Of a stretch of 64,000 nucleotides of DNA, positions 2,261 through 62,459 are shown in pieces. Below the pieces are notes generated by a model. The model had not been told where the DNA came from. It was given only the letters and a program-made list of their open reading frames with translations, and did not search any database. The stretch's first letter is position 1. The number at the start of each line of letters is the position of its first letter. The stretch comes from Eledone cirrhosa. Its lineage: Eukaryota. The stretch covers positions 170,686,001 to 170,750,000 of the forward strand of contig OZ024740.1 of NCBI GenBank assembly GCA_964016885.1, in the 5' to 3' direction. A program made the translations under genes and the position numbers.

Positions 2261-2271
<11 letters not shown>

Positions 2272-4430
2272 AATATAGACATAGAATATTCGAAAATATT
2301 CTGTATGTTTATAATAAACATTTTGAAGACCTAATCGCTATAGAATAGAATACGTCACGTATTACAATTAGATTCTCGATAAAAGCAAGGGAAGTAATCT
2401 ACGCGTTTCATTCTTATTAGAAATCTTCAGGACTACATATCCAGTGCTTTTATCGAGAATGACACAGCTAGAGACTTATAGAATACTTAGCTGTGTACAT
2501 GAACTGGTTTGAAAGAGCGGTTGCCGGTCCGGCAGAAATTAGAAATTGGAATAAATGCTCTGAAATAGCGATATATATGTGAATATAGACATAGAATATT
2601 CGAAAATATTCTGTATGTTTATAATAAACATTTTGAAGACCTAATCGCTATAGAATAGAATACGTCACGTATTACAATTAGATTCTCGATAAAAGCAAGG
2701 GAAGTAATCTACGCGTTTCATTCTTATTAGAAATCTTCAGGACTACATATCCAGTGCTTTTATCGAGAATGACACAGCTAGAGACTTATAGAATACTTAG
2801 CTGTGTACATGAACTGGTTTGAAAGAGCGGTTGCCGGTCCGGCAGAAATTAGAAATTGGAATAAATGCTCTGAAATAGCGATATATATGTGAATATAGAC
2901 ATAGAATATTCGAAAATATTCTGTATGTTTATAATAAACATTTTGAAGACCTAATCGCTATAGAATAGAATACGTCACGTATTACAATTAGATTCTCGAT
3001 AAAAGCAAGGGAAGTAATCTACGCGTTTCATTCTTATTAGAAATCTTCAGGACTACATATCCAGTGCTTTTATCGAGAATGACACAGCTAGAGACTTATA
3101 GAATACTTAGCTGTGTACATGAACTGGTTTGAAAGAGCGGTTGCCGGTCCGGCAGAAATTAGAAATTGGAATAAATGCTCTGAAATAGCGATATATATGT
3201 GAATATAGACATAGAATATTCGAAAATATTCTGTATGTTTATAATAAACATTTTGAAGACCTAATCGCTATAGAATAGAATACGTCACGTATTACAATTA
3301 GATTCTCGATAAAAGCAAGGGAAGTAATCTACGCGTTTCATTCTTATTAGAAATCTTCAGGACTACATATCCAGTGCTTTTATCGAGAATGACACAGCTA
3401 GAGACTTATAGAATACTTAGCTGTGTACATGAACTGGTTTGAAAGAGCGGTTGCCGGTCCGGCAGAAATTAGAAATTGGAATAAATGCTCTGAAATAGCG
3501 ATATATATGTGAATATAGACATAGAATATTCGAAAATATTCTGTATGTTTATAATAAACATTTTGAAGACCTAATCGCTATAGAATAGAATACGTCACGT
3601 ATTACAATTAGATTCTCGATAAAAGCAAGGGAAGTAATCTACGCGTTTCATTCTTATTAGAAATCTTCAGGACTACATATCCAGTGCTTTTATCGAGAAT
3701 GACACAGCTAGAGACTTATAGAATACTTAGCTGTGTACATGAACTGGTTTGAAAGAGCGGTTGCCGGTCCGGCAGAAATTAGAAATTGGAATAAATGCTC
3801 TGAAATAGCGATATATATGTGAATATAGACATAGAATATTCGAAAATATTCTGTATGTTTATAATAAACATTTTGAAGACCTAATCGCTATAGAATAGAA
3901 TACGTCACGTATTACAATTAGATTCTCGATAAAAGCAAGGGAAGTAATCTACGCGTTTCATTCTTATTAGAAATCTTCAGGACTACATATCCAGTGCTTT
4001 TATCGAGAATGACACAGCTAGAGACTTATAGAATACTTAGCTGTGTACATGAACTGGTTTGAAAGAGCGGTTGCCGGTCCGGCAGAAATTAGAAATTGGA
4101 ATAAATGCTCTGAAATAGCGATATATATGTGAATATAGACATAGAATATTCGAAAATATTCTGTATGTTTATAATAAACATTTTGAAGACCTAATCGCTA
4201 TAGAATAGAATACGTCACGTATTACAATTAGATTCTCGATAAAAGCAAGGGAAGTAATCTACGCGTTTCATTCTTATTAGAAATCTTCAGGACTACATAT
4301 CCAGTGCTTTTATCGAGAATGACACAGCTAGAGACTTATAGAATACTTAGCTGTGTACATGAACTGGTTTGAAAGAGCGGTTGCCGGTCCGGCAGAAATT
4401 AGAAATTGGAATAAATGCTCTGAAATAGCG
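2261..4430 (-). mobile_element. Tandem array of 7 x 310-bp units, each with a minimal type I hammerhead ribozyme (non-LTR retrozyme-like)
   Basis: The unit start GAATATAGACATAG recurs at 2271, 2581, 2891, 3201, 3511, 3821 and 4131. Copies look identical by eye. Flanked by (TA)n, with one HHR motif per unit on the minus strand. Confidence 0.85.
2394..2436 (-). ncRNA. Minimal type I hammerhead ribozyme (first of 7 copies, every 310 bp)
   Basis: Minus strand reads GUAGUC-CUGAAGA-U-UUCU-AAUA-AGAA-U-GAAA-CGCG-UA/GAUUAC. This gives a 6-bp stem I, a complete core, a 4-bp stem II, a palindromic ACGCGU in place of stem III and a GUA cleavage triplet. Stem I is extended by a 16-bp inverted repeat (2372-2387 / 2445-2460). 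Confidence 0.88.
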
Positions 4431-4469
4431 ATATATATGTGAATATATGTGAATATATGTGAATATATG

Positions 4470-4513
<44 letters not shown>

Positions 4514-6680
4514 ATTTGAGAAGTTTTTGTTGTTTTAAACTTAAGCTCTTCTTCGGTAAGATAGAAGAGGGGGGAAGGAATAGAAAAATTACGCACGAGG
4601 CGAGAAAGCGTTTTGGCTAGTCACGCCAAATTAATTGTGATTAATTTCTGTGAACTGAAAACGCTTGGATCCGTCGTTTGTTTACCTTGTTGAATACATA
4701 TCTTACCATACAGTACTGCTTGAATACATAGGAAAAATATATGTTTTTTATTGCTAATATGTAACTACAAGCTGCCATGTGGGACATGTGTCAGTTATCA
4801 TAGCTTCGGGTCGACCCATGACTTTAATTGAAATTGGGTAGACGAAAATTGTTTGGGAGCTTATCAGATGAATTACTATATATGTGCAGCAAAGAGTCAT
4901 ACTTATCATGTTGAATCTCCTTGAGAATTCCATTAAGGCTACATATGTCTGTGTACTTCCTAGCCAATTATATGTTAATCTTTTGACCATCATGTCTCGT
5001 TATTTGAACAACAGTAATACTCATCGACGAAACCAACGGAGGCCCATTGCTTCCAAATATCGTGAGATCAAATAATTCAGAAATGCCATCTGCAAAAGTA
5101 TGGTAGTTCTAAGTTATATTCAATATATGAATCAAACTTGAGGCTTGGACCGAATGTTTTCAACAGGGTGATCTTCACTATGGATACTACGGCTACGGTG
5201 GGGTAGAGGTACAGTGTGACGGATTGTGTCTAACACCCAATTAGGCTAAATCAGAATTTGGTCCTAGAATGTAAGAGGCGGAAGAAACCTTACAAAGCAT
5301 CCCGATCGACATTCTAACGATTCCAACACTACACGGGGAAGATGAATGCAAAATGTAAAGATGTCCACTGCAAGAATTGAAATAAGAACGCAAAAGCCGA
5401 TATAAATGACGTTAGGCATTTCGTTTGACACTCTAACACTTCTACCAATGTACTGCCTCGTAAAGTCGGTGACAATATAACAAAGAGTTATTTTATTATA
5501 TTACTCCCACCGAGGTTGGCTTTGCCTTTCATCCTTACTGGGATCAATAAAATAACGCATCAGTAATGCACTGGGTCGACTTTATCGACTTTCTCCTCCA
5601 CAAAAATGTCTGGCCTTGTGCCTAAACAATTATTTTACTCTTTTAATTGGAGCACCGCCATGATTAAGTTGAAGACATTGATCTCAGTTTTTCTATTTAT
5701 CAAATCTAGTATTTATGTTTTTAATATATGTTTTATCGAACCGCTAAGTTTCAGTACATAAATACAGACACATACACATACGTAGACAAAAATACGGACA
5801 CACTCTCACACATACACACAAACACACACAAATGTAGGCACATAAAAGGGCACGCACGCACATATTCACACATACATATATACACATATATATATATATT
5901 AAGAAAGAGTGATTGAAGTTCAACAACTAATCGTAATCCTAGAGTCGAGCTAAATGTAACAGATTAAAGCTCTGAGGTGGCCATTTGCTAAACATATGCT
6001 ACGCTTGATTAAGAATAACATATGTTGAACAGGAAATTCGATCTCTCATACTTAATATAAACATTCTGCATATTACGCCAATAATATACAGGTGTCTGTA
6101 TTAATCCCCACTTTTAATACTGAATATCAAATTCACGCAAAAGCATTGGATACTAAAATAGGTATCACTATTATTCAACCGATGACTCTAGTTAAAGACT
6201 TTTGTCTAAGATGCCGAACAACGAGATGGGACCCAGAACCATGATGACCCTGCTAACTCCTTAACTACACATCCATTCCGGCGCCTATTATGTTTATTTA
6301 TTAATTCTATATATTTCCGTTTTTCTCATAATGTTAGACACATCAGTCTCTCCATTTTATAGAACTGAATTCTCACTTAGCGACAACTTTCTCACGGATG
6401 GGTATAATCGGCTGTATCGATTTCAGTACCTGATAGATATTTTAAAAATCCCTAGAGGAATGAAAGTACAAGTCAGCACCGTTGGGAATTGGTCTCAACA
6501 GATGGAGTGAGGAGACTGCATAGTGTAAAACATACAACTCGTTTTATTCATTCTACTGTAAATGCTTCCATATGTTAGAAAAAATATTTTTGTTTCATTT
6601 ATATTTCCTAAATTCTCTATTGTAAGGAGCCAAATTCATTATTATATGAAGCTATATACGTAGATTGGCATAACTAAACA

Positions 6681-8649: not shown

Positions 8650-8840
8650 TGCATATAAATTTATCCCGGGTTCAATGGGGATAACAAGAGAAAGTAAGGT
8701 ACTTAATGCATAGCAGAGTATAAATATTTAAGATAAAAATGTCTTCTACGGGACTAGAACTGTTTCATTCGGGAGAACTCATCAGCGCTTCCTGATGATT
8801 TCTTCCGAATGAAACAGTTCTAATCCTATAGAAGCCATTT
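8650..8840. mobile_element. Fold-back mini-element with two back-to-back HHR cores
   Basis: Inverted arms at about 8737-8785 and 8792-8840, each reading CTGATGA-(T/G)TTC-T(C/T)CC-GAAT-GAAACAGTTC outward. Homologous to 15265-15470. Confidence 0.65.
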
Positions 8841-17085: not shown

Positions 17086-17121
17086 TCTTCTGAGGAAAGA
17101 CTAGCGTCCGAAACGTTAAGA
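17086..17121 (+). ncRNA. Penelope pLTR-type minimal HHR (same family)
   Basis: UCUU-CUGAGGA-AAGAC-UAGC-GUCC-GAAA-CGUU-AAGA, in a repeat at 17045-17203. A copy at 14842-14945 is truncated within the motif. Confidence 0.6.
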
Positions 17122-49997: not shown

Positions 49998-50030
<33 letters not shown>

Positions 50031-50249
50031 AGTATGTATGTATACGTACATACATATATGTATACAGACGTACAGTAGCATGTATATATATATATACATA
50101 CAGGCACACATATATATATGCACGTATCAGTTTACCGAACATTTATTATAATGTTCGCGTTGTTCGTTTGTAAACAAACGGACAGCCTGATTTACGCCGT
50201 ACAGTGTTCAGGTAACCACGTCACCTTTTTGTTCAACACTGACACAGGA

Positions 50250-50292
50250 ACGATGTACTAGTTTCAAGCTTGTTAGCTATCGTCAGCACCGT
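50250..50292 (-). ncRNA. Minimal type I hammerhead ribozyme (inverted copy)
   Basis: Reverse complement of 50612-50654. Confidence 0.88.
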
Positions 50293-50611
50293 ATACCTTT
50301 CTGCCAGATGGTTGAACGTTCGAAAGTATATACTTTCCTTATGAAAATTAACGGCTGAGCAGCCTAATTTGAATATCGAGTGAGTTCAGTCGGTCAGGCG
50401 CACCGAAAACGATAAATGGAATAGAATGAAACGAAATTTCATTTCTCACTCTTAGTACGGCACTTACTTAAATGTAAGTATGTATGTATACGTACATATA
50501 TATATGTATACAGACTGAACTCACTCGACATGCAAATTAGGCTGCTCAGCCGTTAATTTTCATAAGGAAAGTATATACTTTCGAACGTTCAACCATCTGG
50601 CAGAAAGGTAT

Positions 50612-50654
50612 ACGGTGCTGACGATAGCTAACAAGCTTGAAACTAGTACATCGT
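50612..50654 (+). ncRNA. Minimal type I hammerhead ribozyme
   Basis: ACGGUG-CUGACGA-U-AGCU-AACA-AGCU-U-GAAA-CUAG-UA/CAUCGU, with palindromic ACUAGU in place of stem III. Confidence 0.88.
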
Positions 50655-50802
50655 TCCTGTGTCAGTGTTGAACAAAAAGGTGACGTGGTTACCTGAACAC
50701 TGTACGGCGTAAATCAGGCTGTCCGTTTGTTTACAAACGAACAAAGTGAACATTATAATAAATGTTCGGTAAACTGATACGTGCATATATATATGTGTGC
50801 CT

Positions 50803-50890
<88 letters not shown>

Positions 50891-51123
50891 GCTACTGTAC
50901 GTCTGTATACATATATGTATGTACGTATACATACATACTTACATTTAAGTAAGTGCCGTACTAAGAGTGAGAAATGAAATTTCGTTTCATTCTATTCCAT
51001 TTATCGTTTTCGGTGCGCCTGGCCGACTGAACTCACTCGATATGCAAATTAGGCTGCTCAGCCGTTAATTTTCATAAGGAAAGTATATACTTTCGAACGT
51101 TCAACCATCTGGCAGAAAGGTAT

Positions 51124-51166
51124 ACGGTGCTGACGATAGCTAACAAGCTTGAAACTAGTACATCGT
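51124..51166 (+). ncRNA. Minimal type I hammerhead ribozyme (tandem copy)
   Basis: Same sequence as 50612-50654, 512 bp downstream. Confidence 0.88.
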
Positions 51167-51317
51167 TCCTGTGTCAGTGTTGAACAAAAAGGTGACATGG
51201 TTGCCTGAACACTGTACGGCGTAAATCAGGCTGTCCGTTTGTTTACAAACGAACAAAGCGAACATTATAATAAATGTTCGGTAAACTGATACGTGCATAT
51301 ATATATATGTGTGCCTG

Positions 51318-51380
<63 letters not shown>

Positions 51381-52289
51381 GCTACTGTACGTCTGTATAC
51401 ATATATGTATGTACGTATACATACATACTTACATTTAAGTAAGTGCCGTACTAAGAGTGAGAAATGAAATTTCGTTTCATTCTATTCCATTTATATATAT
51501 ATATATATACATGTGTATATATATTGTGCTGCTAAATATAAAAAAAAAAGATATTCTGTTCATTTGATTGTGCAGAGCAGATGATGAACTCTTTAAGAAT
51601 AAACTAGCTCAATATTGTATTTGACGTTTTCCTGTTACTGCTAACGTAATTTATAAAAGAAAGGCGCATGACAAGACCAATTTCTACCCAATTCCGCATC
51701 AAGATAATCACCTGTCCGGGGATGCCATGGATGTGAAAGTTCGCAGGCGTGCGTGTGATAAATATCAATACTATGATGGGTGTACTATAACCTTGTAATC
51801 ACAAGATTTTAGGAACATCATTCTATCTATGAAAGGGTTACTAATATTTGTACATGTGAAAAGAGAGTGAAATGGCAGAAACAAGAAAGTGACAGACAAA
51901 TAACTTGGTAATGTTTAGTTTCGGTTCTCTATATTTTAATTTCAAATCCTCCTCTAGTCGTTTACTCAGTTGCTAGTAAAAATGAATTTACTGCTTGACA
52001 CTCCAAGATCAGAGGTAGGGAACAATAGATAAACAATTGTATTGAATTCTACTTGAGGAGTTGAAATTAACAAACCGTATCTCATCCTACCGGCTCCCAT
52101 AAAATACTGGGACTGATTCATTCTTACGTCTATGAAAGTATGACCTCGTGCCAATTTAAAAGGACATTAGTCTTAAAGATCAGCTCAGTGCTGGATAAGA
52201 TGTATATTAATAGAGAGTCACATAGCTTCTGTTTACAGCTGAAGTTGATTCGACTGCTATTGTTTTCTTCTTCATTATATTACGAGATT

Positions 52290-60832: not shown

Positions 60833-60872
60833 TACTTTACCGGTTTCGCAGTTCTTCTGCTTTTCAAAAGTA
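60833..60872 (-). ncRNA. Minimal type I hammerhead ribozyme, U3-A8 variant (same family as 15753-15790)
   Basis: UACUU-UUGAAAA-GCAG-AAGAA-CUGC-GAAA-CCGG-UA/AAGUA, within a repeat at 60705-60900 that matches 15623-15818. Confidence 0.78.
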
Positions 60873-61542
60873 GAATTGAGATGGAGGATTTGTGGTTTTT
60901 ATATATATATATGCATATATTGTCCTCGCTATGTTATTCAACGTAAGTTTTGTATTGTTTGCCTTGTAAAATACCCTAGGAGAGTGTTTGACTGCCTTTT
61001 TAGACACCGTGACCGGAAATAGACCAACATTACTTTCGGTAGGGGTTGAAACTATATACATGCCTCTTGGCTGAGTTTTTGATTGTAGAAATAAATTTCA
61101 TTCGACAAACTCGTTTTAAATTTTGTCAGGGAGAAGGGATGCACAATTTCAAATTAAGGAAGAAAATTACCTCTTATGAAAATACGATTGTGCATCCAAC
61201 TCTAACCACTAAGCCATCCTTCTGTTATTTTAAATAAATATTTAACTCTATTCCCGCATCAGCCACGGGATTTAACACCTCCATCACGGTTTTCTAAACG
61301 TAATGACCAGTTCTGTCAACTGGCAGAATATAAATGGTATATATATATATATATATATATATGAACGTTTGTATTGTATATTCAATAATATATGGTATAT
61401 ATATATATATATATGAACGTTCGTATTGTATATTCAATAATATACTGTATGTTTATCTTAAAACATGTTGAAGGCCTTTCGCTATGAATTTAAGGCAGTG
61501 ACAATAAGCACACACCTAGCTTCAGCAAAAGCAAAGGGAAAG

Positions 61543-61583
61543 AACCGACGATCGTTTCTCACTGTTTAGTGGTTATCAAGACT
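61543..61583 (-). ncRNA. Type I hammerhead ribozyme, U3-A8 core variant (copy 1)
   Basis: AGUC-UUGAUAA-CCACUAAACAGUGA-GAAA-CGAUCG-UC/GGUU. Stem I is weakened by G-U pairs. Confidence 0.68.
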
Positions 61584-61868
61584 ATATATCCCTTTGTTCT
61601 TGCTGTGAGCTGTAGAAGTTGAATTCTTATACTATACTTATTATGTTTATGAGTTCTTTGAACTCATTAACATACAGAGCGGTTGCGGGCCCAACAACAA
61701 TTAAAAATTTGTGTTGGAGCTCTGAAATACCAATATATATATGAATGTACGTATTGTATATTTAATAATATACTGTATATTTATTTTAAAACATTTTGAA
61801 GGCCTTTCGCTATGAATTTATGGTAATGACTATAGTCACACACCTAGCTTCAGCAAAAACAAAGGGAA

Positions 61869-61913
61869 ATAACCGACAATTATTTCTCACTGTTTAGTGG
61901 TTATCAAGGCTAT
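61869..61913 (-). ncRNA. Type I hammerhead ribozyme, U3-A8 core variant
   Basis: AUAGCC-UUGAUAA-C-CACU-AAAC-AGUG-A-GAAA-UAAUUG-UC/GGUUAU. The sister copy at 61543-61583 has palindromic CGAUCG in the stem III position. Confidence 0.72.
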
Positions 61914-62459
61914 ATATCCCTTTGTTCTTGCTGCGAGCTGTAGAAGCTGGATTCTTATAAAATATATGAGCAAGAAAAATATAGACTTCGGCCAGAAAGG
62001 AAAGTAGGAATTCAAGCAAAACTGTATCTTCCTTCACACAGACACACATATATATATGTGTGTGTGGGGGTACCACTAAATTTAAACGTATATAGATAGA
62101 TAGACTCAAAAATACGCCCTATGAATCTAGCCAATGTATTTAACAAATGTAAAAATATAACAATACTACAAACTAGTCACATGTGTATACAACTCATGCA
62201 TTCGCCTAAATATCATTTTTATATTTATGTTGCTAATAAATTGATCGAAATTCATTCTTAATCGCCATTTCTTTTTTACTTTGGGGAAATGGGAAAATAA
62301 ATAGTTTGATTGAATCCGTAAATAATGAAAGAAAAAATAATTTCATCGTGTCAGCAACGATTAAACTGGTCATGTAGCCCCTTATTTTAATAAAACAAAA
62401 CAAGCCGAGTTAATATAAGACTTTCATATGAAAGATATAATTATAAAGCATTATATATA

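Follow-up and report, generated by a model that had tools for sequence, protein, structure and literature searches.

The 64,000 nucleotides of Eledone cirrhosa DNA analyzed here (contig OZ024740.1, positions 170,686,001 to 170,750,000; hereafter the window) come from a 3.0-Gb genome rich in microsatellites, and toward one end they hold a short tandem repeat with a 328-bp period. An earlier note, made from the sequence alone, saw in this repeat a hammerhead ribozyme and a diverged sister of a 310-bp repeat in the same window, and read the differences between the two as selection in a family of non-coding mobile RNAs. What, then, is this locus, and on what has selection acted? Judged by its sequence, 61405-61959 holds a small non-coding repeat with a U3-A8 hammerhead motif, in a copy that is old and decayed. 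We consider it very probable that this 328-bp copy represents one of at least eight homologous families, likely non-LTR retrozymes moved by a Penelope-type enzyme, and that any selection was on the source lineages.

A decayed 328-bp copy and its 310-bp relative

The insertion, a member of what we call family B, lies on the minus strand at 61405..61959. It is 5′-truncated and single-armed, comprises approximately 1.7 units, and differs from the family majority by 41 mismatches over 555 positions. The cleavage nucleotides of its two minus-strand type I hammerhead motifs, 61875 and 61547, are 328 bp apart and delimit one full unit on that strand (61547..61874, 328 nt from cleavage site to cleavage site), which is strongly self-paired (-87.2 kcal/mol; z -7.4 as a linear and -6.6 as a circular molecule, with z -6.1 for the opposite strand). 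Self-pairing of the whole 328-bp unit into a stable RNA fold is expected of a non-LTR retrozyme. The two copies at the locus are 90.7% identical over 226 bp. The upstream hammerhead (61869..61919, minus strand; predicted cut after 61875) is assembled from a GGAUAU motif (61914-61919), stem I (61908-61913 with 61869-61874), a U3-A8 core (61901-61907), stem II with a C.A base (61887-61900), and GAAA with a decayed palindrome (61875-61886). Its stem I is perfect, its palindrome is damaged by two CpG-type changes, and it is predicted to misfold, the mutated palindrome pairing with the core. The downstream hammerhead (61541..61591, minus strand; predicted cut after 61547) has a U3-A8 core at 61573-61579 and an intact CGAUCG palindrome; its stem I carries one U.C mismatch and one extra wobble and is absent from the MFE fold. 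Helix I is extended distally on the minus strand in both copies (61851..61933 upstream, pairing 61918-61933 with 61851-61867; 61590-61605 with 61523-61539 downstream). The central segment (61676..61817, minus strand), the best conserved between families with 76% identity to the 310-bp unit, contains both insertion end sites, at unit positions of about 140 and 160-170. At the 3′ junction (61338..61444) the element stops near unit position 140 within (TA)n, and its last bases are locally duplicated (52 bp x 1.9, 61344-61444). Repeats neighboring the locus may be akin to octopus SINEs. A depth peak at 61708-61803 in run X1 was considered as a larger third family and rejected, given that its other letters fit cross-mapping from the 310-bp family.

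A hammerhead descriptor matched 14 times in the 64-kb window, compared with zero or one match in each of 20 Markov-shuffled windows. Rfam gave no hammerhead model among 111 window matches at E<=1, only microsatellite noise, which we ascribe to a helix III that is very short for a monomer fold. In family B, the core boxes with a Watson-Crick 3-8 pair, GAAA and UH stand in type I order, helices I and II covary and helix I has an internal loop, as in type I hammerheads. The exception is the pair at 10.1-11.1, at the base of helix II, which is a nonstandard C.A in 29 of 39 copies. The earlier note did not mention this base, which is nonstandard in both units (U.U in the 310-bp unit, C.A in the 328-bp unit).

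The 310-bp relative, family A, is a young array on the minus strand at 2261..4447. It has 7.1 copies of the unit, with six identical cleavage-to-cleavage units and seven identical C3-G8 hammerheads, each with U.U at the base of stem II. The two units are homologous along their whole length (global alignment score 71; shuffle mean -159, sd 15, best of 500 = -109). The homology outside the ribozyme that the earlier note had claimed is confirmed, since with the ribozyme cut away the score is still 52, against -121 for shuffles and -65 for the best of them. Identity to the 310-bp unit is 75% for the window's 328-bp unit, and 70% between the two family majorities. The further claim that the stems differ in sequence while still pairing stands in substance: compensatory change is found, and changes are two-sided at 4/6 stem I pairs and 2/4 stem II pairs. 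The stems it quoted, however, mix two damaged copies, with stem I taken from the copy at 61875 and CGAUCG from the copy at 61547. The resulting composite nonetheless equals the family majority, which was drawn from 37 ribozyme copies at 30 loci.

The 310-bp array itself lies in a TA run inside another inverted-arm element (1950-2200 and 4510-4553), which has a hammerhead-like motif at 2061 on the minus strand and relatives at 17090 and 56845. In a 98% variant of the 310-bp family (L093, L111), the stem I G.U wobble is shifted by two one-sided changes. Runs X4, X5, and X6, labeled as three other organisms, each contain a single 340-base contig that circularizes to the 310-bp unit (window 2270-2579), and only short pieces resembling the 328-bp family. 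These contigs have 3-4 differences from the 310-bp unit, all of them variants present in run X1, and three of the four are X1 majority letters. Contamination across samples by a highly abundant repeat is the most economical interpretation, although the unit may also have passed between species.

Compensatory change and the level of selection

The covariation on which the earlier note had staked its reading is present. In a non-circular test, pairs with a probability >0.8 from one family alone were scored on a sequence-only alignment. Under a null of independent substitutions at observed rates, which ignores templated correction between the long inverted arms, pairs taken from family A showed 9 compensatory doubles in 48 in family B where 2.1 were expected (p 0.0002), with 2 broken doubles and 7 broken singles, while the reverse comparison gave 14 in 77 where 3.5 were expected (0/5000 simulations). 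Among all eight families, 38/56 ordered comparisons, which are not independent of each other, reached p<0.05; the signal was weak for family N (1/7 comparisons). When 17 real copies were placed on a structure drawn from the same sequences, with families N and N2 partly out of register in stem I, 85.4% of cells were paired (41-51% in slid controls) and 13/25 named pairs changed on both sides (4-6 in slid controls). The 3-8 pair was U-A in 13 of these copies, C-G in 3 and other in 1. The count of further pair types in the 17 copies was no higher than in shuffles (482/500 as high). One stem II pair in a B-centered set occurred as A-U 25 times, G-C 18, G.U 8, and A.C 5 (p 1e-4).

Two-sided changes in the long stems could conceivably reflect templated copying between the inverted arms, during reverse transcription or DNA repair, in place of selection on RNA structure. 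In favor of such copying, the distal stems form nearly perfect inverted repeats, both strands of the 328-bp unit fold about equally well, and in one copy (L004) the inverse of the 3′ arm replaces the 5′ stem I arm. However, the 3-8 pair lies outside any DNA palindrome, yet both of its bases switch together in every family. Furthermore, G.U and U.U positions that templated correction would erase persist across families, and the catalytic boxes are conserved while the stems turn over. We therefore regard templated copying as a distinctly improbable source of the compensatory changes, and prefer selection on RNA structure.

The level at which selection acted is a separate matter. With 41 mismatches in 555 positions and lesions in both ribozymes, any selection probably acted on the source lineages that gave rise to the copies and not on this locus. 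It might be supposed that the host retains the genomic copies for some function that these have themselves, given that core positions in the B-centered set differ less than expected (27 differences vs 44.8, p 0.002). That set, however, mixes M and N2 copies, which inflates its non-core divergence, and family I, with 23 core differences vs 27.3 expected (p 0.23), shows no excess conservation. All 11 core bases are intact in only 35/57 spanning copies, CpG sites decay 2-3 times faster, and both ribozymes at 61405-61959 are damaged, leaving retention by the host very improbable. CpG decay, loss of core bases, and weak core conservation together place selection best on the source lineages. The earlier note's argument for selection on structure and catalysis thus keeps its first half, borne by the compensatory changes, with the selection moved to the source lineages and catalysis a presumption. 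RNA editing was considered as a driver of compensation and rejected for the old families, as A>G did not exceed T>C on the sense strand (193/6243 vs 160/5774 in the B-centered set, p 0.30; 74/2845 vs 71/2694 in family I).

Eight families and the 3-8 core pair

Genome searches, in each of which the best 40 candidates were scored, gathered at least eight homologous families (six beyond A and B) with pairwise identities of 62-91%. All eight share a period of 310-328 bp and occur head to tail, circularly permuted. Their ages are graded. Taking decay as the median divergence from the family majority and counting 3-8 states per copy, family A (310 bp) has decayed by ~0% and is C3-G8 in 13/14 copies, with U.U at 10.1-11.1; N2 has decayed by 1.6% (U3-A8 in 33/33, G-C at 10.1-11.1) and N by 3.4% (C3-G8 in 34/36, U.U). 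The remaining five have U3-A8 and C.A: X at 5.8% (23/26 copies), M2 at 8.2% (6/7), B (328 bp) at 8.4% in a set with some M and N2 copies mixed in (37/39), M1 at 8.7% (14/15), and I at 10.9% (27/33). Hence the core UUGAUAA does keep a 3-8 pair in family B, as the earlier note had proposed. Its observation that GGAUAU is kept applies to families A and B, which have the motif in common, while four of the eight families (M2, X, N, N2) have it changed. The helix III palindrome, 4-11 nt long, is different in each family. First-look candidates for the B, M, N, N2, and X queries (2108-2627) overlap and are not copy numbers of B; a 16-base U3-A8 pattern with 317 exact matches, vs 9 for its control, sets a lower bound for B, M, X, and I taken together.

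Other hammerhead repeats stand apart from this group. Families C, D, and E of the window have no sequence alignable with A or B outside the ribozyme, and families H and J show no homology to A or B at E<1e-4 except short ribozyme-length matches; all five were omitted from the family tree. Family C (window 49999-51494) is a two-armed C3-G8 hammerhead repeat with cores at 50286 on the minus strand and at 50618 and 51130 on the plus strand; its unit contains a long TA run, and a tandem array is found at G000:C4:212.92-212.96 Mb. Family D, unalignable to the 328-bp unit, has U3-A8 hammerheads at 60867 and 15786 on the minus strand, G-C at the helix II base, and inverted arms. Family H (L171-L195, L122-L124) is a dispersed repeat of ~233 bp with U3-A8 and G-C at the helix II base (1693 first-look candidates). 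Further hammerhead-like repeats at 8785 (minus), 8792 and 15414 (plus), and 7083 (plus) comprise an inverted pair with U.U at the helix II base and a long-helix-II motif of the Penelope minimal type.

The 3-8 pair is thus U3-A8 in six families (B, I, M1, M2, X, N2) and C3-G8 in two (A, N). On an unrooted tree of the eight family majorities, from which both 3-8 columns were excluded, N and N2 group at 100/100 and a grouping of A with N is rejected (p-AU 0.0003). The fewest changes of the 3-8 pair on this tree are two, with or without the X majority. Because A and N do not group, at least two changes of the pair seem to have occurred among the eight families of this genome. Parsimony implies one change from U-A to C-G on the N branch, unless the root lies there. 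The branch leading to A is long (0.4) and the root was not inferred, so that A may represent a second return or an older state kept. The direction given in the earlier note, from C3-G8 to U3-A8, is not established: parsimony on the eight families requires one or more changes in the opposite direction, and an unrooted tree admits alternative polarities.

A different history would involve no true reversion. The A and N cores may have been acquired by module exchange, through template switching between co-packaged RNAs, or C3-G8 may be ancestral with U3-A8 gained three times. Stem I of family A is identical to that of M1, M2, and X despite the long branch on which A sits, and on an unrooted tree three separate gains cost only one step above the minimum. 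Conversely, N and N2 share 86% identity, and the stems flanking their opposite 3-8 pairs are clearly homologous, in keeping with point changes; all five older families (5.8-10.9% decay) have U3-A8. We consider exchange or triple gain somewhat unlikely.

The switching may be tied to the base of helix II. U.U at 10.1-11.1 occurs in 3/4 C3-G8 families and 0/8 U3-A8 families (p 0.018), a count that includes the unalignable families C, D, H, and J (J from single copies) and treats related families as independent, and the apparent coupling of U.U with C3-G8 serves only as a lead. C3-G8 with a B-type helix II start, as an intermediate, had 0 pattern matches in a narrow test. Tentatively, the 3-8 pair may have switched in both directions, one of the switches leading back from U3-A8 to C3-G8, in step with the helix II base, U.U going only with C3-G8 and fixed C.A only with U3-A8. 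If true, this genome would preserve, with dates, a natural record of epistasis within the active site of a ribozyme, open to being replayed in vitro.

Insertion, mobility, and known systems

The families share an insertion anatomy. At 30 loci of family B, 27/41 arms end at unit positions 140-169 and 23/41 end in TA runs; the two end sites are ~140 and 160-170 nt past the cleavage site. Two-armed loci are head-to-head in 11/11 cases for B (30 loci), 13/13 for N (25), 15/15 for N2 (25), 9/11 for X (25), and 5/5 for I (30), and the insertion ends and arms of family A have the same anatomy. The units here are non-coding, low in GC, 310-328 bp long, and arranged head-to-tail, each with a type I hammerhead and without LTRs, as is described for non-LTR retrozymes of 170-400 bp. 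They also have fixed 3′ ends with a tail on one side, truncation and inverted copies at the 5′ end, and a microsatellite target, as is typical of Penelope-like elements. The reading of the 328-bp repeat as a likely member of a retrozyme family is supported, alongside its homology, motif anatomy, and compensatory changes.

How such copies might arise can be modeled on published proposals of transcript cleavage, ligation, and Penelope-type copying (PMC4209133; PMC7229834). In a transcript longer than one unit, one hammerhead after another would cleave, likely through dimers held by the palindromic helix III, and the unit RNA would likely be ligated into a circle. A Penelope-type reverse transcriptase and endonuclease, by analogy with known elements, may then prime at the two end sites and copy the unit into (TA)n. 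Only source RNAs with a working fold would have left copies, which then decayed after insertion. In circular-monomer folds the first stem I pair has a probability of only 0.01 for N2 and X, and stem II one of 0.15 or less for A, N, and M1. A helix III hairpin is possible only in M1, M2, and N2 and impossible in A, B, I, N, and X, whose helix III homoduplexes are predicted at -7.5 to -13.6 kcal/mol. For the family I majority (L141-L170), a 6-bp pairing is possible between the core and the stretch formed by the cleavage site and the 3′ side of helix III, and a monomer folded in this way is predicted to be in an off state. Because B arms reach at most 2.3 units, rolling-circle copying is better seen in family A.

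Alternatively, the units might be terminal repeats (pLTRs) left stranded by a coding Penelope-like element, and not an independent small circular RNA. Penelope-like elements are described with 5′ truncation, an inverted 5′ copy, a one-sided tail of 30-40 bp, and (TA)n targets (Craig et al., 2021; PMC8557442), all paralleled by the truncated and inverted arms, the (TA)n targets, and the ~26-38 bp tail found here. Most B copies contain only 1-2 units, and in Xenopus 24/57 retrozyme families were reported to be homologous to annotated elements, 21/22 of these elements being Penelope-like (Li, Clavereau and Pollet, 2026; bioRxiv 10.64898/2026.07.22.740005). All families nonetheless have circularly permuted, head-to-tail repeats with a shared period of 310-328 bp, and family A forms long pure arrays of many units. 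No examined locus had the unit joined in register to a coding region in ORF listings limited to ~1.5 kb of flank. In those same flanks we found no autonomous partner with the terminal segment in common, and four neighboring ORF fragments gave two sub-threshold Pfam matches only. We hold the terminal-repeat origin to be unlikely and favor small retrozymes mobilized by a Penelope-type enzyme.

Much of this has precedents. Metazoan non-LTR retrozymes have been described, with axolotl Rtz331 and Rtz353 being the closest families (Cervera and de la Pena, 2020; PMC7229834). Like these, the families described here have low-GC tandem units in the 170-400 bp range, a canonical type I hammerhead, a short palindromic helix III, a self-paired unit, and sister families within one genome, and HHR_Amex2 of the same report has U.U at the helix II base, as in families A and N. 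Unlike the axolotl retrozymes, those of E. cirrhosa, which are known from sequence alone, include U3-A8, C.A at the helix II base, and eight families of graded age. We found no cephalopod and no U3-A8 retrozyme in that report, although its supplements may differ. Natural U3-A8 hammerheads were reported by Perreault et al. (2011; PMC3088659), who also assert earlier in vitro activity for this pair. They also occur in Cercyon elements of Schistosoma mansoni, with ~1,300 hits in Schistosoma (Cervera and de la Pena, 2014; PMC4209133). The compensatory core pair is the same as in E. cirrhosa, but the Schistosoma motifs are described as minimal hammerheads that belong to Penelope terminal repeats and have a long helix II, whereas those here are canonical-sized and show both 3-8 states among alignable sister families. 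U.U at 10.1-11.1 is a published tolerated variant (PMC3088659; PMC7229834). C10.1-A11.1 was not found in the literature searched, which was mostly open-access, and the supplementary motif tables of the 2011, 2014, 2020, and 2026 papers may list such variants; nor, supplements aside, did that literature yield retrozymes of octopus or other cephalopods.

Retrozymes have been proposed as non-autonomous Penelope-like elements in the 2026 preprint cited above, which argues from co-occurrence and a tree in Xenopus, while the present case is made from insertion anatomy; the preprint also reports that 8/9 predicted retrozyme dimers were uncleaved in vitro. In the pDo500 satellite of Dolichopoda crickets, compensatory stem changes were taken as selection on the hammerhead (Martinsen et al., 2010; PMC2837043). 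The core of pDo500 is described as nearly constant across 198 sequences, while in E. cirrhosa the 3-8 pair switches, and unlike the satellite the copies here are dispersed and decaying. Non-LTR retrozymes, their Penelope link, natural U3-A8, and compensatory hammerhead changes are therefore already known; repeated 3-8 switching among alignable families of one genome appears to be the new detail. Modest as a discovery, the locus has value as material for asking which core combinations evolution accepts. Eight alignable families spanning ~0-11% decay, both 3-8 states, three 10.1-11.1 states, and palindromes of 4-11 nt allow one to ask how a two-step 3-8 change crosses a presumably impaired intermediate, and the shared end sites provide a defined substrate with which the Penelope-type enzyme presumed to move these RNAs could be sought. 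The last unit bases are reiterated at insertion ends both at 4433-4478 (10 bp x 4.6) and at 61344-61444 (52 bp x 1.9), and such short reiterations may reflect re-priming at the TA target.
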